A DNA stretch of 47,192 bases from NCBI GenBank assembly GCA_963527165.1, contig CAURQO010000001.1, forward strand, positions 1-47,192. The letters run 5' to 3'. Position 1 is the stretch's first letter; each line of letters opens with the position of its first letter. Shown here one piece after another: positions 4,345 to 47,192 of the stretch. Source of the stretch: an uncultured bacterium. GTDB taxonomy: Bacteria > Patescibacteriota > Saccharimonadia > Saccharimonadales > Saccharimonadaceae. Below the pieces are notes generated by a model, which was not told where the DNA came from, made no database searches, and was given only the letters and a program-made list of their open reading frames with translations. Made by a program: the position numbers and the translations under genes.

Positions 4345-6186
4345 ATGGATTTTAAAGATAACCCTAAAAAGGTTAAGCGGGTTTCGAGCTACTTACAGAA
4401 AAATAAATCACAGACTTCGAAAAGTCAAACTGTTCAAGTTATACCGAATAAAAAAATGTCACTTTCTGAAAGAGCTGATTTTGCTGAGAAAGTAATTATT
4501 TCGCATACGAAAAAAATGTTTTTTGGTCGTTTTGAGAACTTATCAAATATTCGAAAAGTGGTTATCATCTGGGTTGCGGTGATGGCTTTTTTGATCTTCT
4601 CGGTTGGTTTTTTTCGAGAAGTTAGTAGTAAAAATTATAGCGAAGAAGTTTTTTATAAAGGTGGAACTTATTCTGAGGGAATTTTAGGCGAAATTAAAAC
4701 ATTGAATCCGATTTTGGCTTCAACTGAAAGCGAAAAATCGTTCGAGCAGCTTGCTTTTTCGCAACTTTATGATATAGATGAGAGTGGAAGTTTAAAGGGT
4801 GATTTGGCTGAAGCTGTTTCAACTAAGGATAATTACCGAAATTTTGATATTAAAATTCGAAAAAATGTAAAATGGTCTGATGGAGAAAAACTAACTACGG
4901 ATGATGTTATTTTTACAATAAAACTACTTAAAGAGCAATCTTTAAATGTTTCAAACTTTAAAGTTTGGAAGAATGTTGAGGTCTCAAAAAAAGACGATTA
5001 TGAAATTTCGGTAAAAGTTCCAACAAATTCTTCATCGATTTTGTATAGTTTTAATTTTTCAATTTTACCAGAACATATTTTAAAAAATATTCAACCAGAT
5101 AAAATTCGAGAAATCACTTTTTCGAATAATCTTGTGACATCCGGTGCATTCAACTTTAAATCGATTCAGTCGGATGCAAATAAAACTACAGTTTCTTTGG
5201 TAAAAAATAAGAATTACTACAAGGGTGAGCCTTATATTGATAATTTTGACTTGGTTGTCTTTAATGATAGTGATAAGTTGAAAAAATCATTAGTTGCTGG
5301 CGAGATTGTGGCGTCACCGAGCGTTAAGATTAGTGATTTTTCGGAAAACGAACAGATTAAGTTTAGCTCAAGAGAGATCAAAGTCAATCGAGGTATTTAT
5401 GCATTTTTAAATAATTCTGATCCGATTTTGAAGGACCCTAAAATTCGAAGAGCTATTCAATCTGGAATTGATATTTTAAAAGTTCGAAAAGAGATGGAGT
5501 TTGTCGAAAAACTTGATTATCCGACTTTGAATCAATTTATTAATACGAAAGATTTAAATTTACCGGAATATAATTTTAAGCAGGCCGAAAAAGTGATTGA
5601 ATCGGCTGGCTGGCGTAAAAATTCTAATGGAATTCTTGAAAAAGATGGTCAGAAAGCTACGTTAAATCTCGCAACGACTAGTGTTTATAACTATAAAAAA
5701 GCAGCTGAGGAAATTTCGAAACAACTTAAAGATCTTGGTTTTGATGTAAAAATGACAATAATTGATAAGGATGATAAAACAGGGGCGTTTATTCAATCAA
5801 TTCTTCAACCAAGGAATTACAGTATTTTGGTTTATGAAATTGATCTTGGAGCTGATCCTGATGTTTATGCTTTCTGGCATTCATCTCAATCTGGGCAGAG
5901 AGGGTTAAATTTTTCAAATTATAGTGACGTGATTGCGGATGATTTGTTGGTAAATTCACGACTTGCTCAAACTTCCGAAGATAAAAAACTTCAACTTACG
6001 AAATTTAGCCAGCGCTGGATTGCGAATTCGGCGGCAATTGGTTTAGGGCAAACAAAAACTAGTTATGTTTTTCGAAAATCAGTTAAGCCTTTCTCCCAAA
6101 AAATTTTTTTTGAACCAGATTTAAATCTTTATTCTGATGTTATATATTGGTCGGCAAAAAAATCGACTCTTTACAAGACGCCGTAA
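4345..6186 (+). CDS. ABC transporter substrate-binding protein (peptide-binding family 5)
   Basis: N-terminal TM, then TLNP, GDLAE, KWSDGEKLTTDDVIFT, ILPEHI, DPDVYAFWHSSQ, NFSNY. Confidence 0.9.
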   Translation: MDFKDNPKKVKRVSSYLQKNKSQTSKSQTVQVIPNKKMSLSERADFAEKVIISHTKKMFFGRFENLSNIRKVVIIWVAVMAFLIFSVGFFREVSSKNYSEEVFYKGGTYSEGILGEIKTLNPILASTESEKSFEQLAFSQLYDIDESGSLKGDLAEAVSTKDNYRNFDIKIRKNVKWSDGEKLTTDDVIFTIKLLKEQSLNVSNFKVWKNVEVSKKDDYEISVKVPTNSSSILYSFNFSILPEHILKNIQPDKIREITFSNNLVTSGAFNFKSIQSDANKTTVSLVKNKNYYKGEPYIDNFDLVVFNDSDKLKKSLVAGEIVASPSVKISDFSENEQIKFSSREIKVNRGIYAFLNNSDPILKDPKIRRAIQSGIDILKVRKEMEFVEKLDYPTLNQFINTKDLNLPEYNFKQAEKVIESAGWRKNSNGILEKDGQKATLNLATTSVYNYKKAAEEISKQLKDLGFDVKMTIIDKDDKTGAFIQSILQPRNYSILVYEIDLGADPDVYAFWHSSQSGQRGLNFSNYSDVIADDLLVNSRLAQTSEDKKLQLTKFSQRWIANSAAIGLGQTKTSYVFRKSVKPFSQKIFFEPDLNLYSDVIYWSAKKSTLYKTP

Positions 6187-14003: not shown

Positions 14004-14078
14004 TGGGATGTCGCCAAGTGGTAAGGCACCAGGTTTTGGTCCTGGCATTCGGGGGTTCGAATCCCTCCATCCCAGCCA
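14004..14078 (+). tRNA. tRNA-Gln(TTG), prophage integration target
   Basis: Anticodon arm CCAGG-TTTTGGT-CCTGG, GGTTCGAATCC, CCA end. Confidence 0.96.
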
Positions 14079-14121
14079 AATTAAGAACACGAGTTAGGTG
14101 TATAGACTGACTCGTGTTTTT
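14037..14121 (+). repeat. attL direct repeat
   Basis: 14037-14099 is identical to 42649-42711 (63 bp). The match extends to 85 bp with 2 mismatches and covers the tRNA 3' half and its terminator hairpin. Confidence 0.95.
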
Positions 14122-18438: not shown

Positions 18439-18636
18439 ATGAAAGCGATATATCGAGGTGTAGCTTGTGCTGAGCTATTCAACAAGAAATTCGAAGTTCC
18501 GGAACACAAAACGCGAACTTTTGAAAAAACACCTGAAGAAATTAAAAAAGCTTTAAAGATTGAAGAAGATCGAAAAAGATATTTAGACAATCAGCGGAAA
18601 AAGAAAAAAAGAAAGGAGAAATATGAAGAGGTATAA
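18439..18636 (+). CDS. Small basic phage protein
   Basis: ATGA overlap with a 22-codon ORF at 18374-18442 that has a strong AGGAGG RBS. The two may be one frameshifted gene. Confidence 0.5.
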   Translation: MKAIYRGVACAELFNKKFEVPEHKTRTFEKTPEEIKKALKIEEDRKRYLDNQRKKKKRKEKYEEV

Positions 18637-19225
18637 ATTACTTAAGGATTTACCTTTTGCGAAAGCTGGAACGGTATTTACGAGAAATACTTTTAAGAGT
18701 AAAGATGGTCTAAGTGATTATGATTATCTTGAAGCTCATATATTGTTAGATGGTGATCAAGATGAAACTTGCTTTGGTCTTAAGCGAAACTATTTTATAA
18801 ATAATTTTGATCAATGGTTTGAAGAAATTAAAGAGCCTAAAATATTTTTCACTATAGATATTTATAGATCAAAATTTAAAGAAATAAATATTGATTACTA
18901 TTCTGGCTGGAGTGCTTTGGAAGTTAAAAATATAAAAGATTTAGGATTACTATTTAAAACCGTAGAAAAAACTAAAAAGTATCTTAAATATCTAAAAGCC
19001 AAAGAAATTATCAAGCAAGACACCAAAGGATTTAAACCTGATTGGAATAACGGAGATGAAACTAAATTTTTTGGCTACTGGGATTTTATTCTTGAAGAAC
19101 CAGGTCACGGTCTAGACTATAGAGCAAAGACTCCAAATATATATTTCCAGTCCCCAAAAGACATCAAAGAAAGCTTTGCAAAACACCCAGAAGAATGGAA
19201 GACATATTTGACTTATGAGCAATAA
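18623..19225 (+). CDS. Hypothetical phage protein
   Basis: AAGGAG RBS, 200-aa ORF (MKRYKLLKDLP...FKPDW). Confidence 0.75.
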   Translation: MKRYKLLKDLPFAKAGTVFTRNTFKSKDGLSDYDYLEAHILLDGDQDETCFGLKRNYFINNFDQWFEEIKEPKIFFTIDIYRSKFKEINIDYYSGWSALEVKNIKDLGLLFKTVEKTKKYLKYLKAKEIIKQDTKGFKPDWNNGDETKFFGYWDFILEEPGHGLDYRAKTPNIYFQSPKDIKESFAKHPEEWKTYLTYEQ

Positions 19226-23821: not shown

Positions 23822-26365
23822 ATGTTTAGAGATTTTTTTAGCCGTTTGGTCGGCGGTAATATGAAAAAGAAGAGCGCCTCGCACTACGCTTTTAATCGGC
23901 CAAAATCAATGTTAGGTGCGCATACATTTTATAAAGGGCTATCATACGATAACTCATATCCGTCTATTTCACGAATTGTAAATGAATTTATGACAATTAG
24001 GCCGTATGCAATAGACAATAACGGTAAAACTATTCAAGATTCGGTGGTGATGAATAAAATATATCACCCGAATCAACAGATGAGTGGTGCGACTTTTCGT
24101 GAGGCTTTAGCACTCCTAAGCTTGGTTTTTCCTAAGGTTTATGTTTTGGTTTGGAGCTATGGTGAACAGGGCGCTCCGATAACTGGACAAAAAATTACTC
24201 CTGAAAATATAGCAGGGTTTACTATTCTTGAGGGAGTTTCTGAATATTATGTTGGTGAAGAGAAACGCTATCGAGTTGGTTCTAATGAGTATTTTGATTA
24301 TGAAATTATTGAACTTCGAAGTGGGGTTAATCCATATGATTTGAGCGGAGGTTATAGCCCGACTGATGCCGCTCGAAAATGGGCGTCTATTGACGATTAC
24401 ATTGCAAGCTATCAAGCTGGTTATTTTGAAAATGGTGCTGTGCCAGCTGGACAGTTTATTATTACTGCTGGAAGTGTTGAAGAATATAATAATATCGTTG
24501 ATAATCTACAAGCACGACATCGTGGCAGTGGCAGTAATAATAATGTGGTTTATGTTCATCGCCCAATCGAAAGTGTAACAGGTAAGCCAGTTAATGCTCA
24601 GATTGAGTGGGTGCCATTTGCTGAGAGTAATAAGAATCTTGATTTGAAAAGCTTATTTGACCAAGCTAATAAGAAAATTGACAGTATTTATGGCGTTCCT
24701 GCAAGCGTTCGAGGTGTGAATGATAACAACACTTATGCCAGTGTGCGAATAGATGAACAGATTTTTATTAAATATACGATCAGGCCTTTTGCGACACGGA
24801 TTTGGAGTGAATTTACGCATCAATTAAACCGAATTACAGGTGGATTGGGCTTTGCGATAACTTTTGACCTTGATATTCCTGGTGTTGCTGAAGAAGAGAA
24901 GATTGAAGCTGAGCGTAAAACGGCTGAATTAGCTTTGATTAAGACTGGCTTAGAAATGGGCTATTCATTAGATAGCATAGTTGATGCATTTGAGCTCTCG
25001 AATGGCTATAAAACGCTTAAAATGGGTGAAACTCCACCAAAAATTGAGAATGACAAGCCTGAAGTTGATGACGGTGGCGAAGTTGAGGAATCGCCAGAAG
25101 ATTTAAACGTAAAAAGTGTGCATATCTGCAATGATTGCGGAGATCATCACTGTTTAAAAGCTGATACGAAAACAAAAAACGAAAAACAAAAAGATAAAGA
25201 CCAAAACGCACTAGAAACTGTTTTTCGTGACATGACTAATGAGCAGATTGAGCGAGCTATTGATAGTGATTTTGAAGATTTTGACCTTGGCGATAAAGAC
25301 CGTGAGAAGTTTAAGCAAAGAATAAAGGTGATATTGCTGAGCGTGCTGGTAACTCGTGGTGTAGTGGCTTGGAGTGATTTTGCCTCGATATTAAAACAAA
25401 ACAACATATCGACTGATGATCTGACTGAATTTAAGCTTTCTGACAAGCTGAAAAAACATTATGACAAAATGATAACTGATTTTACTAAGAGTTTTAGTGA
25501 AGATACGGCGAGATCAATTACTAACAGAGTTGCTCAAGCAGAAATAGAAGACTGGAATAAAGAAGAGCTAGCTCGTAGCTTGCGAGATATAACAAAAACC
25601 GAAGAATGGCGAATTCAGCGAATAGCTCGCACTGAAACACACCGAGCACACGGCTTGGCTGGTGTGGAGGCTGGCGTGCAAATCCAAAATGAATCTGGCG
25701 TGCAGATTTATAAAGAGTGGGTGGTAGTGAGCGCTAATCCATGTAAATATTGTCGTGGAATGGACGGCCGGCGAGTTAATGTAACTGAAAGCTATGTTAA
25801 AAAAGGTGGAATTCTAATTGGTAAATCGAAAATCCGTGTCAATGATTACGCCGATATTGACACAGCGGGAGCGCACCCTAACTGTTCTTGTGTGGAGAAG
25901 TTTGGGATTGAAGAAAATAATAATGAACCTTGGCGGAGTGTTGAGATTGAAGAATTACCAGCCGAGAAATTTAATGAGGTTTATGGTAAAGGCTGGAAAG
26001 ATTTTAGTTTTGATAGAAATGAACCCCTGAATAAACGAGAAAAAGAGGTTGCTAAAATTCTATCACATAGCCTTGATGCAAAAGTATATTCTTTACGACG
26101 CGTCGAGAAGCCTAATGGGGTGAAGACACCAGACCTAATGATTAATGGAATAAAAGCTGATATTAAGAGCGTGAGTTCCTTGCGAGCTATCGAGAAAGCC
26201 AGTTCTAAGGTAGCTAAACAAACTGGAGAAGGTGGTATTGCTGTCTTTGATTTGAAAGAGCTATTCGAGACAGAGGAAAAGATTATTAAAAAAGCCCAAT
26301 TCGAAACCTCGATAAGAAATCTTGAATTTTACGTAATACTTGGTGATAAAATTATTAAGAAATAA
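23822..26365 (+). CDS. Portal + MuF head-morphogenesis + C-terminal PD-(D/E)xK nuclease (CdiA-CT-like) fusion
   Basis: HK97-type portal motifs (FENGAVP, YGVP, P....I...F), MuF motifs (RIARTE, KEW, CKYC, HPNCSC), then KTPDLMINGIKADIK...KQ...AVFD. Confidence 0.85.
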   Translation: MFRDFFSRLVGGNMKKKSASHYAFNRPKSMLGAHTFYKGLSYDNSYPSISRIVNEFMTIRPYAIDNNGKTIQDSVVMNKIYHPNQQMSGATFREALALLSLVFPKVYVLVWSYGEQGAPITGQKITPENIAGFTILEGVSEYYVGEEKRYRVGSNEYFDYEIIELRSGVNPYDLSGGYSPTDAARKWASIDDYIASYQAGYFENGAVPAGQFIITAGSVEEYNNIVDNLQARHRGSGSNNNVVYVHRPIESVTGKPVNAQIEWVPFAESNKNLDLKSLFDQANKKIDSIYGVPASVRGVNDNNTYASVRIDEQIFIKYTIRPFATRIWSEFTHQLNRITGGLGFAITFDLDIPGVAEEEKIEAERKTAELALIKTGLEMGYSLDSIVDAFELSNGYKTLKMGETPPKIENDKPEVDDGGEVEESPEDLNVKSVHICNDCGDHHCLKADTKTKNEKQKDKDQNALETVFRDMTNEQIERAIDSDFEDFDLGDKDREKFKQRIKVILLSVLVTRGVVAWSDFASILKQNNISTDDLTEFKLSDKLKKHYDKMITDFTKSFSEDTARSITNRVAQAEIEDWNKEELARSLRDITKTEEWRIQRIARTETHRAHGLAGVEAGVQIQNESGVQIYKEWVVVSANPCKYCRGMDGRRVNVTESYVKKGGILIGKSKIRVNDYADIDTAGAHPNCSCVEKFGIEENNNEPWRSVEIEELPAEKFNEVYGKGWKDFSFDRNEPLNKREKEVAKILSHSLDAKVYSLRRVEKPNGVKTPDLMINGIKADIKSVSSLRAIEKASSKVAKQTGEGGIAVFDLKELFETEEKIIKKAQFETSIRNLEFYVILGDKIIKK

Positions 26366-26451
26366 TAAAAGAGGCATCGCCCTAGTGCTATCCAGCACAA
26401 GAGTATGCCTCTTAATATTTTCATTATACCGCATTTTGACTAAAAAGTCAA
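26360..26451 (-). ncRNA. Candidate small hairpin RNA with own promoter, convergent on the toxin gene
   Basis: Minus-strand TTGACT (26451-26446)-N17-TATAAT (26428-26423), hairpin at 26369-26413, then a T-run. No ORF is served. Confidence 0.6.
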
Positions 26452-41592: not shown

Positions 41593-42513
41593 ATGATTAA
41601 TGAACAAATTGAAACATATTTAAATTGGTGCGAGAATATCACAAACTTAACAGAGCAAACAATTGGAACGAAGAAGTTTATTTTGCGGATATTTGTAAAG
41701 CAGACGATGATTGATGATATCTTTGAACTTGATTTGGAGACTTTTATTGAGTGGAAAAATGGGATGCTCTCGGGCAATTTGACAGGTAGGACTTATGGCG
41801 TGGAAACAATAAACACACGACTAAAAACTTTGCGGTGCTTTTTGAGGTGGGCAGTGGAGTATTATGAGAGAAGACCAAAAATCAGACCGATTATGATTCA
41901 GAAAATTAAATCAGTAAACAAAACACCAGATTATATCTTTTATCGTGAGAATGAAATTAAATATGTTTTGAAAAGTTCACCAGAGTTCGAGAAACTTTCA
42001 ATTGCTTTGTTGTTCGAAAGTGGTCTACGGATTTCAGAATTTCGAAATATTAAGGTTGGCGATATTGATTTTGAAAAGGGGAGAATTGCGATAATTGGTA
42101 AAGGGCGAAAGTTTGGCTATGTTTATTTTTCGTTCAGAACCAGCTTAAAACTTGAGAATTATATTGCTAAAAATGGACTTTTCGACCACGATTTCTTATG
42201 GAGAAGCCCTGCGAGCGCTTCTGGACAACCTTTGACTGTAAAGGCGATCCGAAAGCGCTTAAAACGGCAATTTGAACGATGCGGATTTAAGAATTTTCAC
42301 CCGCACCAACTTCGACATTCTTTCGCGACTAATTTAGCCGAACGGGGTGCAGATATTTATGAAATTCAGCAGCTATTACGACACGCAGATATTCGAACGA
42401 CTCAAATTTACCTTCATCACCTTCAAAATAAACTTGGTAATTCTTATCGAAGAATTTTCAACGAAGAGATTTACTACTTTAAAATACCTTTTTCAGAAAA
42501 AACTTATGTTTAG
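41593..42513 (+). CDS. Tyrosine recombinase / integrase
   Basis: SGLRISE, GKGRK, HPHQLRHSFAT, LLRH, TTQIY. Adjacent to attR. Confidence 0.95.
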   Translation: MINEQIETYLNWCENITNLTEQTIGTKKFILRIFVKQTMIDDIFELDLETFIEWKNGMLSGNLTGRTYGVETINTRLKTLRCFLRWAVEYYERRPKIRPIMIQKIKSVNKTPDYIFYRENEIKYVLKSSPEFEKLSIALLFESGLRISEFRNIKVGDIDFEKGRIAIIGKGRKFGYVYFSFRTSLKLENYIAKNGLFDHDFLWRSPASASGQPLTVKAIRKRLKRQFERCGFKNFHPHQLRHSFATNLAERGADIYEIQQLLRHADIRTTQIYLHHLQNKLGNSYRRIFNEEIYYFKIPFSEKTYV

Positions 42514-42648
42514 GTATTGACTTTTTAGCTCGGGTGTGATATTATAGGAACATAAGACGCAGAAAGCGTTAAGTAAATGAAAATATGGACTTTTATCACT
42601 GCTGATAAAGTCTATACACCCAAATACTCTTATTGGTTGGCAGGGTTC

Positions 42649-42733
42649 TGGTCCTGGCATTCGGGGGTTCGAATCCCTCCATCCCAGCCAAATTAAGAAC
42701 ACGAGTTAGGTATATAAACTGACTCGTGTTTTT
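42649..42733 (+). repeat. attR direct repeat (3' half of tRNA-Gln plus terminator)
   Basis: Matches 14037-14121 at 83/85 positions. Confidence 0.95.
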
Positions 42734-43125
42734 ATTTTTTTTTGGGGGGGGGGGTATTAGTATAATTAATATTTTAAAAATATATAATGTATTTAAAAAA
42801 GAAAGAGCTTTTATGGAAGTAGTAAAATAGAAAAATATTCAGAAAATATTATTAAAGCTTGTTTATAAATTGGCTTGAAAATAATGGTTGATTTAGCTAT
42901 TTTAATTTTCCACTGTATTATAATGGAATTTTTTGATTGAATGAAAAACTTTTCGAAAATATTACACCCTTATTTTACAGACAAGCATTCAAAAAGATAT
43001 TTTTAAAGAATATAATTTTGAACTATAGATAGGTACATATAGCTAAAGTTGTTTGAAAGAACGGCTTATTTTAAATAAAAATAAAATCGCTAATCTTTCA
43101 AAAAGCGATTTATAATAATTTCTTT

Positions 43126-45873: not shown

Positions 45874-46647
45874 TTGGGCAGATTGGATCGCCAACGGGAC
45901 ATTTGGCGTGGTAATGTTGAAAATAACTATGCTAACCAGCTAAACGACCTTGAGAATAGCTACACCCAAAGCAAGGGCGCCTATGAGATGAACAAACGAG
46001 ATTCAGAAGCTCAGAACCGTGCAGTGCGTTCACAAATCATGGAAGACGCAAACAACCAAACTAACTCTTTGCGCCAAATGTTTGCAGCAGGTGGAGCTGG
46101 AGATTCAAGCGCAGCACAAATTGTTGCTCCTTGGGCGGTTGGTTTGGAGGCGAGCCGAAACGCCGGAAGTGCACAAGATGCTTTCGCCCGAGATCGCCGA
46201 AACCAAGACTTGGAGTTTGCTAGCGCAACTAATGCATACAACAAGAACAAGAAAAACTGGGAAACAAACCGCCAAGATGCGCTAAATAACGTTGATTCGC
46301 AAATTGAAAGTAGCCGAATTGACCTAAATAACCGCATTATGGATGCAAGGCAGAAACAAAAGACTGCCAATGGCCAAGGGTTGCAGAGTGCGATAGACCA
46401 AACACGGGATCTATCTAACCAGATTAGCAACAGCCAGAATAGAATTTTGGATTTGAGTAAGGAAACACCAAAAGCCCTTGAAAAAGTGGAATTTAAAGCA
46501 CCAAAGCTTAGCGATTATAGCGAAAATGTGCAAGGTGTGAAAGTGGATAGCGGAAACCCAGACCAGGCAGGACTACAAGACCAGCTTGACCCACGGCTTG
46601 CTGCGTTGCTTGATCCAAATAAGAAGAAAAAGGATTTGCAGGCGTAG
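45874..46647 (+). pseudogene. Probably 5'-truncated phage-like coiled-coil protein gene
   Basis: TTG start with no clear RBS, abrupt shift to higher GC, Q/N/A-rich helical product (AGGAGDSSAA). Confidence 0.5.
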
Positions 46648-46957
46648 AAAAGGGAAGGCGAAAGCAGTTTAATATTGAAGAAATATACAAGATATTGAAT
46701 AACGAGATTATAGACTAAAAATAGACCAGATCGCCGAGTCCTATGCAGGACACGACCGCTGGTCTATTTATTTTTGTAAGCCTTACTATTTAGATCTTAT
46801 CATATTTAAGCTAAAAAGTCAATATTCTTTTTAGAGATAGCTTCATTAATGATAATAAAAGTAAAACAGCCCGCATTCCCTGGACCAGACCCAGGTGCGT
46901 AGCTGTTTTATACTTCAATAATATCATAAGTCGTCTAAAAAATCAAGGATATTGAAC

Positions 46958-47018
46958 AACCTCAATAAGAAATCTTGAATTCTATATAATACTTGGTGAT
47001 AAAATTATTAAGAAATAA
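46958..47018 (+). repeat. Diverged copy of the last 61 bp of the prophage portal-MuF-toxin gene
   Basis: 57/61 identical to 26305-26365. Confidence 0.92.
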
Positions 47019-47136
47019 GAAAAGAGTGATATTGCAATCCCGAACCAATTCCGGGGCAATATCACTCTATACTTTAATACTATCATAAAATAGCTAAAAA
47101 GTCAATATCCTTTTTGAAGGTGGCTTTATTAATGGC

Positions 47137-47192
47137 AAATAATAAAAGAGGCATCGCCCTAGTGCTATCCAGCACAAGAGTATGCCTCTTAA
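47137..47192 (+). repeat. Exact copy of the prophage post-toxin hairpin
   Basis: 56/56 identical to 26360-26415, up to the window edge. Confidence 0.95.

Follow-up and report, generated by a model that had tools for sequence, protein, structure and literature searches.

A candidate family of small hairpin RNA genes paired with CdiA_C-type toxins in Saccharibacteria, with orphan units arrayed outside a prophage

The hairpin array and the prophage toxin gene

The DNA analysed here (the window, 47,192 nucleotides) is the whole of contig C1 of a Saccharibacteria genome, labelled G000, which comprises 636 kb in 59 contigs and whose assembly is 91% complete. At the right end of the window (46648-47192) lie four hairpin units, and a prophage in the same contig carries a portal-MuF gene with a C-terminal toxin domain that is followed by one of the same hairpins. 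Our results suggest that the units are small RNA genes, and that the RNA family is the conserved partner of a group of nuclease toxins for which it may serve as the antidote. The elements concerned are the following.

23822-26365, plus strand: portal-MuF protein of the prophage, 847 amino acids (aa); Pfam Phage_portal E 7.5e-27, Phage_Mu_F E 6e-9
25967..26365, plus strand: toxin domain (allele A), the C-terminus of portal-MuF; Pfam CdiA_C and an AlphaFold2 (AF2) model
26362..26451, minus strand: cognate A4 RNA gene in the prophage; promoter TTGACT-17-TATAAT 26451->26423, hairpin 26368-26413
45874..46647, plus strand: 257-aa gene, function unassigned; its stop codon abuts the array
46649..46718, plus strand: orphan tip of toxin allele B (last 22 codons and stop), translation KGRRKQFNIEEIYKILNNEIID, stop
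46712..46787, minus strand: unit 1 RNA, type B1, class I, predicted ~75 nt; hairpin 46720-46768 and minus-strand U-tract
46794..46822, minus strand: unit 1 promoter TTGACT-17-TAAGAT with TG extension (promoter scan)
46853..46911, minus strand: unit 2 RNA, type E2, class IV, predicted ~58 nt; hairpin 46863-46908, apex a 5-bp stem with loop GUCUGGU
46918..46946, minus strand: unit 2 promoter TTGATT-17-TATTAT with TG extension (promoter scan)
46958..47018, plus strand: orphan tip of toxin allele A (last 19 codons and stop), translation TSIRNLEFYIILGDKIIKK, stop
47013..47070, minus strand: unit 3 RNA, type C3, class IV, predicted ~58 nt; apex a 5-bp stem with loop AAUUGGU
47077..47105, minus strand: unit 3 promoter TTGACT-17-TAGTAT with TG extension (promoter scan)
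47137..47192, minus strand: unit 4, type A4, class I; hairpin 47146-47190; the promoter would fall past the contig end

The original prediction described four co-oriented units, in each of which an interrupted hairpin is followed by a minus-strand U-tract, and this was borne out by the sequence and by the predicted folds (hairpins at about 46720-46768, 46863-46908, 47017-47074 and 47146-47190). All four hairpins folded far better than shuffled sequences on either strand (z -4.3 to -7.2), and the minus-strand fold was the more stable one for unit 1 (-30.6 vs. -24.2 kcal/mol) and unit 3 (-28.4 vs. -24.6 kcal/mol). A promoter scan recovered the minus-strand promoters proposed for units 1 to 3, with their 17-nt spacer and a TG before the -10, and the motif ATATTGACTTTTTAG of the unit 1 promoter was, within the genome, confined to this contig. 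Covariance model R1 matched unit 1 at 46718-46769 on the minus strand, with an E of 9e-11 for a sequence that belonged to the training set, as well as unit 4 (47142-47192, minus strand) and the prophage copy (26365-26417, minus strand), whose U-tract overlaps the stop codon of the toxin.

The gene remnants between the units were also found as described. The stop-terminated tip preceding unit 1 is fused directly behind the stop codon of the 257-aa gene and is 95-97% identical to the ends of the B-allele portal-MuF genes in genomes G013 and G017. Unit 3 is attached to a toxin-gene end, seen as a 69-bp stretch with 93% identity to 26305-26373; as this A-allele tip is joined to a C-type hairpin, the unit is recombinant. 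Unit 4 is identical to the prophage hairpin at 56/56 positions (26360-26415), and since the last base of this 56-bp repeat is also the last base of the contig, the array looks cut by an assembly break at the repeat. The junction between the 257-aa gene stop and unit 1 recurs independently in G020 and in one run contig, those between unit 1 and unit 2 and between unit 2 and the A-type tip recur in G017, and the junction of units 3 and 4 was seen in this assembly only.

Small open reading frames in the array (for instance MILLKY... and MIVLKY...) were rejected as genes, since their starts lie inside the promoters and they are not conserved between types. A linker of ~35 nt (...CTTTTTGAAGGTGGCTTTATTAATGGCAAATAA, reading ..FINGK and a stop) recurs at different unit junctions, at 46826-46861 and 47109-47144 in the window and in locus L037. 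Possibly it is the end of another toxin allele, of which we found no intact version.

The prophage is bounded by direct repeats (82/84 identical, 14038-14121 and 42650-42733) that cover the 3' part of a tRNA-Gln(UUG) gene, and encodes a terminase, the portal-MuF fusion, a protease-capsid fusion, a tape measure protein, an endolysin and an integrase. The array lies outside it, as predicted, ~4 kb to the right of the repeat at 42650-42733, and the order from there is tRNA-Glu, pyruvate kinase, carbamate kinase, 257-aa gene, array. With an N-terminal MuF domain encoded in a prophage and a variable C-terminal toxin on a conserved trunk, the portal-MuF gene has the features of a MuF toxin system: at least six alternative C-terminal domains of ~130 aa (A, B, C, D, D' and E) are found on trunks that are 92-98% identical.

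All six alleles matched Pfam CdiA_C (PF18451) at E <= 1, with a best E of 1.9e-7, and the profile found 313 relatives, mainly C-terminal domains in proteins of many sizes. The AF2 model of the toxin, made from 35 sequences, had a predicted local distance difference test score (pLDDT) of 92.7. Its best fold match in the PDB was 4g6v_A (E 8e-4, template-modelling score 0.55-0.60), followed by restriction-endonuclease-like folds, and E40, D71 and K82 were invariant across the 35 aligned toxin relatives. A profile sequence search of the PDB with the toxin gave chance-level matches only (E >= 0.11). Judged by the Pfam profile and the modelled fold, the toxins are members of the CdiA_C / PD-(D/E)XK nuclease family, with the fold of the Burkholderia 1026b CdiA-CT tRNase. 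In another genus of the same family (L087, G231:C1, 1276-3231) the architecture differs: the CdiA_C match is close to the beginning of an open frame that exceeds 650 aa and continues past the end of the locus.

Linkage of hairpin types to toxin alleles and stand-alone toxins

Related loci were gathered through the conserved MuF part of the gene, which gave loci in 9 of 35 genomes of the genus, on 3 viral contigs and at 24 metagenome loci. From the 37 loci tabulated we dropped five that were too short, two exact duplicates, one that ended before the hairpin and one truncated pseudogene; seven of the 28 scored loci are error-prone long-read contigs, which were typed by nucleotide similarity. In 28/28 loci the first element after the toxin stop was the cognate hairpin (A 8, B 5, C 4, D 4, D' 4, E 3), starting 2-9 nt past the stop codon. 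Allele A is paired with the hairpin type of unit 4 (A4), B with that of unit 1 (B1), E with that of unit 2 (E2) and C with that of unit 3 (C3), and alleles D and D' are paired with two further hairpin types (D5 and D'). The proposed association of the hairpins with MuF/CdiA-CT-type toxin genes is thus present and allele-specific.

The place where an immunity gene would be expected holds little else. In simple loci the distance from the toxin stop to the capsid ATG is 162-183 nt, and this gap contains the hairpin, the minus-strand promoter and a conserved capsid leader, so that no protein immunity gene fits there. Directly downstream of the toxin we found no small immunity open reading frame common to the alleles. 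With no protein antidote gene beside the toxin, the probable antidote is the RNA. Across three prophages, which are mosaic, we looked for another locus that varies along with the toxin allele; besides the toxin locus, only an early-region stretch (~18457-18948) differed in both the B-allele and the D'-allele prophage.

In some loci the gap between toxin and capsid is a cargo slot, with the cargo located between hairpin units (L017 4598-5660, L034 4147-4740, L037 4316-4696). The cargo was a SocA/Panacea-domain gene with a 146-aa partner, an NYN-domain gene or a Fic/DOC gene.

Toxins of this kind are not confined to phages. CdiA_C was found in 19 of 201 genomes of the order, where most matches were stand-alone frames of 128-183 aa that scored 50-59 bits. 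Together with two loci from a 301-genome phylum sample, the 17 loci examined from the order search give 19 stand-alone loci, 16 of them scored by script and three by eye. All 19 have a sigma-70-like promoter, an interrupted hairpin of 40-51 nt and a U-run at the toxin stop, and the loci scored by script have 8-12 of 12 promoter matches. In 17/19 loci the unit is on the toxin strand, where the -35 falls within the final codons and the -10 ends 6-16 nt past the stop; the remaining two (L077 and L110) are convergent, like the window. Across toxins, the codon phase of the -35 TTGAC differs, an indication that selection acts on the DNA motif and not on the protein. The genes upstream of the stand-alone toxins (DHH, Replic_Relax, Lcl_C, histidine kinase, thymidylate-synthase-like and NUDIX) are mutually unrelated, so that no neighbour other than the RNA unit is conserved. 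The stand-alone loci are independent support both for the RNA strand and for the partnership of toxin and RNA.

Identical or near-identical stand-alone modules of toxin and RNA occur across different families (L084 in G133 and L085 in G229; L075, L076, L080 and L081). Three of these modules adjoin Replic_Relax genes, and the sharing suggests horizontal spread on small replicons. In L074 (G061:C8) one stand-alone toxin is followed by two unlike RNA units in tandem, both of which have a -10 of their own; together they form a non-phage mini-array.

Strand, covariation and conservation of the hairpin RNAs

The minus-strand A4 and B1 RNAs of the window are clearly homologous to the plus-strand RNAs of several stand-alone loci and were aligned with them. 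In this alignment 84% of cells pair, compared to 66.6 +/- 3.0 in shuffles (reached by 0/500), and 11/15 pairs show compensatory change (2/500 shuffles). The covariation signal was abolished by sliding the pairing partners. There were 15 G-U cells vs. 4 A-C cells, which fixes the strand as the proposed RNA strand. This is in line with the folds, as the minus-strand fold was more stable in 5/6 hairpin types, and with the U-tract, which read by eye always follows the stem on the minus strand and does not do so for A4 and C3 on the plus strand. Between D and D', and within the D and E variants, the inner stem changes in compensatory pairs and the loop is retained.

With a covariance model built from the alignment of A4 and B1 with the stand-alone RNAs, a search of 151 genomes located homologues right next to CdiA_C toxin genes of other genera, as the original prediction would have it. 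The search recovered its training sites and gave two new matches at E < 1e-5, one an orphan beside a degraded toxin tail and the other an orphan without a toxin. Three weak matches (E 6e-4 to 7e-3) look like ordinary terminators and were rejected. Rfam recognised only tRNAs in the window and nothing credible in the array at E <= 10; on ten stand-alone loci it gave tRNAs and one unrelated LOOT RNA only. A BLAST search of a phage collection with the array and the toxin tail gave no match, and a search for related loci with an alignment as the query returned only one viral contig, which was already known.

In 20 loci from five allele groups the hairpin had 3/256 variable columns, all outside the stems, vs. 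121/1995 in the toxin coding sequence (Fisher p 4e-4, which overstates the difference because the loci are related); spacer and promoter had 70/274.

The strand and conservation data bear on the possibility that the RNA is an antisense regulator, type I-like or like the OOP RNA of phage lambda, that pairs with the toxin mRNA and sets its stability or translation. In the MuF loci and in L077 and L110 the RNA gene is convergent and fully complementary to the 3' end of the toxin gene, and the loops of class IV carry UUGG or CUGG, which resemble the YUNR motif typical of antisense RNA loops. An RNA that is antisense in cis stays complementary after any mutation, and so would not need the conservation observed; since 17/19 stand-alone RNAs are on the toxin's own strand, such a mechanism is not general. 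The predicted RNA:mRNA duplexes were gapped and showed no cognate preference (for the translation initiation region, TIR, a mean of -22.1 for cognate vs. -20.2 +/- 6.3 for non-cognate pairs). We therefore regard antisense regulation as quite improbable.

The class of RNA tracks the toxin clade on the tree, with five label changes where the minimum is four and shuffles average 12.4, although clustering of this kind is expected for linked genes and is no proof of co-evolution. Linkage of RNA type and toxin clade, and their co-variation, would also fit an obligatory partner, that is, an RNA required as a cofactor for folding, capsid packaging, targeting or activity of the nuclease. Orphan RNA genes without a toxin (units 1-3 of the window, G032:C70 and G086:C13) make little sense for a cofactor, G000 has a single CdiA_C match, and we give this explanation little credence.

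Orphan units and the RNA immunity model

Orphan arrays, expected from the original prediction, were found both within prophages and in the chromosome. In 7/28 prophage loci the cognate unit is followed by units of other alleles, in the orders B1-E2-[cargo]-D5-A4 (G017), D'-[cargo]-D5-A4 (L040) and E2-A4 (L037 and L049), and some of these orphans retain 10-70 bp of a toxin tip. In the chromosome, the site after the 257-aa gene carries orphan units in G000, in G020 (B1-D5) and in one run contig (B1, then other sequence). With one MuF gene and one CdiA_C match in G000, its B1, E2 and C3 units are without a cognate toxin, within an assembly of the completeness given above. Elsewhere, in L021 (G009:C3, ~4880-5120), a type II CRISPR array ends in a degenerate repeat that directly adjoins the remains of a prophage, namely ~100 bp of an allele-E toxin tip, an E2 unit with promoter and the first ~20 capsid codons.

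Such arrays could be neutral scars, in which the hairpins are merely terminators of portal-MuF genes, the promoters are leftovers and cassette recombination has left functionless fragments behind. The tips carried by the units vary from 0 to ~100 bp, joints can be recombinant (for example an A tip on a C hairpin), promoters are lost or weakened in some orphans, and the B, D and E hairpins could also terminate on the plus strand. What scars do not explain is that promoter, hairpin and U-tract recur beside stand-alone toxins of other genera in both orientations, that the -35/-10 spacing is preserved across unrelated cassettes, that the hairpin including its loops is more conserved than the neighbouring coding DNA, and that G-U asymmetry and U-tract indicate the minus strand and not the toxin strand. 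On balance we judge this explanation unlikely. The earlier claim that the units were stockpiled from several phages is consistent with the data, with neutral recombination scars as the less likely alternative.

Our preferred explanation, in which we place a little more than even trust, is that the hairpins form a toxin/small-RNA-antitoxin family that is used as RNA immunity against a phage polymorphic toxin, with orphan units stockpiled. Each unit would be a self-contained gene for a hairpin RNA of 45-85 nt, on the minus strand here, driven by a sigma-70-type promoter that usually has a TG-extended -10 and terminated by the hairpin and its U-tract. The RNA family would be the conserved, type-specific partner of Saccharibacteria CdiA_C / PD-(D/E)XK toxins, whether stand-alone or C-terminal in portal-MuF, and most likely neutralises the cognate toxin by binding the protein, as type III antitoxins do, possibly as a mimic of the tRNA substrate. 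The RNA would thereby replace the usual protein immunity gene. In the array, RNA genes for alleles B, E, C and A would have been retained and the toxin genes removed, which would confer immunity against the toxins of incoming related phages. The comparative side of the RNA-immunity proposal was thus supported: the data show the anatomy of the units, their linkage to toxin alleles, homology, covariation, strand and the missing protein partner, whereas it is an inference that the units are transcribed, that the RNA binds and neutralises the toxin and that the cell benefits.

Several observations weigh against this explanation. The promoter-like sites number six, compared to 2.4 +/- 1.4 in shuffles of the 793-bp AT-rich region, a modest excess of ~2.5 standard deviations. 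A simple, strict terminator rule finds 0 sites among the hairpins, because the stems are interrupted; read by eye, every stem has a U-run of at least four behind it on the RNA-sense strand. The bit score of allele A, 24.5, is slightly below the Pfam cut-off of 26.6. As the prophages are mosaic, a protein immunity gene could lie elsewhere in them, and a toxin made in lytic growth alone might require no antidote. The low diversity of the hairpins could stem from recent recombinational spread and not from selection. Finally, some orphans have lost or weakened promoters (B1 in G020 is without a promoter, and E2 in G017 has TTAATT as -35), so that decay is part of the picture.

A possible mode of action comes from the loops. 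The class IV RNAs (C3, D5, D' and E2) have a 5-bp stem and a 7-nt loop, NN-YUG-GU, and the stems covary with the loop kept. The loop of D5 and D', UUUUGGU, matches the tRNA-Gln(UUG) anticodon loop of this genome at 7/7 positions. That of E2 agrees with the tRNA-Gln(CUG) loop at 6/7 positions, and an E2 variant has C->U at the wobble position. Among 34 tRNAs, UGGU at positions 35-38 occurs in Gln only. Possibly, each RNA serves as an allele-specific pseudo-substrate that mimics tRNA and plugs the active site of the toxin, and the C, D and E toxins are tRNA-Gln anticodon nucleases; since the likeness is a single post hoc observation, we offer this as a tentative and rather doubtful idea. By longest common word, tRNA likeness was above shuffles for C3 only (3/100). 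For class I a 9-nt match, GCUGGAUAG, to the D-loop of tRNA-Arg was rejected, as 26/100 shuffles were as good.

The same tRNA-Gln gene is used for phage integration, and the 7 nt it shares with the class IV loop would suit hairpins that act as DNA, as recombination or protein-binding sites for cassette exchange (integron attC-like or secondary attachment sites). The hairpins are indeed imperfect and sit at the 3' ends of exchangeable cassettes, in arrays. However, the overlap with the attachment region is just these 7 nt, the sole integrase is the prophage tyrosine integrase (41593-42513), and promoter and U-tract would be left unexplained, with the G-U asymmetry indicating selection on RNA. 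We find a DNA element very improbable indeed, and its integron attC-like form was rejected, as the cassettes have no open reading frames and no integron integrase is nearby.

The proposed RNA immunity combines two known kinds of system, the toxin with an RNA antitoxin and the polymorphic toxin with orphan immunity arrays. The accepted counterpart of a polymorphic toxin (contact-dependent growth inhibition (CDI), Rhs, MuF and others) is a cognate immunity protein. To our knowledge RNA antitoxins come only from type I and type III toxin-antitoxin systems, and we know of very few characterised defence or regulatory RNAs in the ultra-small Saccharibacteria. Among open-access papers and preprints we found no RNA partner described for polymorphic or CdiA-CT-type toxins.

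In type III systems a tandem-repeat antitoxin RNA is located upstream of the toxin, with a terminator between the two. Here each unit is one hairpin that has a promoter of its own, follows the toxin gene in one orientation or the other and shows no internal tandem repeat, and the toxin has the PD-(D/E)XK / CdiA_C fold instead of the ToxN type. The likeness to type III lies in a nuclease toxin, a small structured RNA, the lack of a protein antitoxin and, by analogy, the proposed action on the protein; PMC13682666 and PMC5086642 describe toxIN, cptIN and tenpIN as a nuclease toxin with a small structured non-coding RNA, often on mobile elements. Compared to the CdiA-CT/CdiI pair of Burkholderia pseudomallei 1026b, the toxin here is phage-borne or stand-alone and the partner is an RNA. 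According to passages in PMC9086364, the 1026b CdiA-CT (PDB 4G6V) is a PD-(D/E)XK tRNase with an E/D/D/K active site that cuts the acceptor stem of tRNA-Ala, is delivered by type V secretion and is neutralised by the protein CdiI, which contacts the active site.

The RNA gene also differs from what is found in MuF systems. These are described, in passages of Jamet et al. 2017 (PMC5576092), as a MuF domain with variable, cassette-exchanged C-terminal toxins that include the cd13442 / Bp1026b-type nuclease. The combination of MuF and exchangeable toxin is the same here, but the RNA gene fills the slot and no immunity reading frame fits. Orphan arrays of cdiA-CT/cdiI and rhs-CT modules were reportedly described by Poole et al. 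in 2011, with displaced modules gathering downstream or elsewhere, the toxin truncated and the immunity gene kept; in our case the part retained is an RNA gene of ~100 bp and not a protein gene. The prophage-borne DNase toxin of the type I system RalR/RalA is controlled by RalA RNA, which base-pairs with the toxin mRNA, whereas most RNA genes here are on the toxin strand and no cognate complementarity was found.

If our explanation is correct, PD-(D/E)XK (CdiA_C) would join the nuclease folds restrained by a small RNA, and an RNA gene would occupy the immunity slot of a phage polymorphic toxin. Orphan immunity banks could then consist of 100-bp RNA genes that are missed by gene callers, which would give a testable handle on the conflict between Saccharibacteria and their phages. 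About 10% of MuF toxin genes are without a downstream small open reading frame according to a passage in PMC5576092, and these would merit a search for RNA partners. Should the tRNA-mimic idea also hold, cell and phage would be engaged in an arms race through banks of RNA decoys, a new form of immunity to polymorphic toxins.

The site of the array is itself variable. The 257-aa gene is present in 11 other genomes of the genus, where it has its own terminator and is followed by differing cargo genes. We rejected it as a truncated polymorphic toxin, as it has the same end residue in 13 genomes. The gene is Q/N-rich, and in its relatives the variable cargo spot is followed by a gene for a protein of 1154 aa that contains an LPD3 ('large polyvalent protein') domain; in G020 a Bro-N gene is present at the site (L019 = G020:C76, 1033-5703). 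The 'chromosomal' site may itself be part of a mobile element. Next to the prophage end, the phage-type promoter (TTGACT-17-TATTAT with TG, 42517-42545, plus strand) occurs a fifth time; this copy is directly after the integrase gene, faces attR and the rebuilt 3' half of tRNA-Gln, and is followed by short hairpins and no obvious gene. Just outside attR (42735-42760) there is a run of T8 and then G11, possibly a slippage-prone tract or an assembly oddity.

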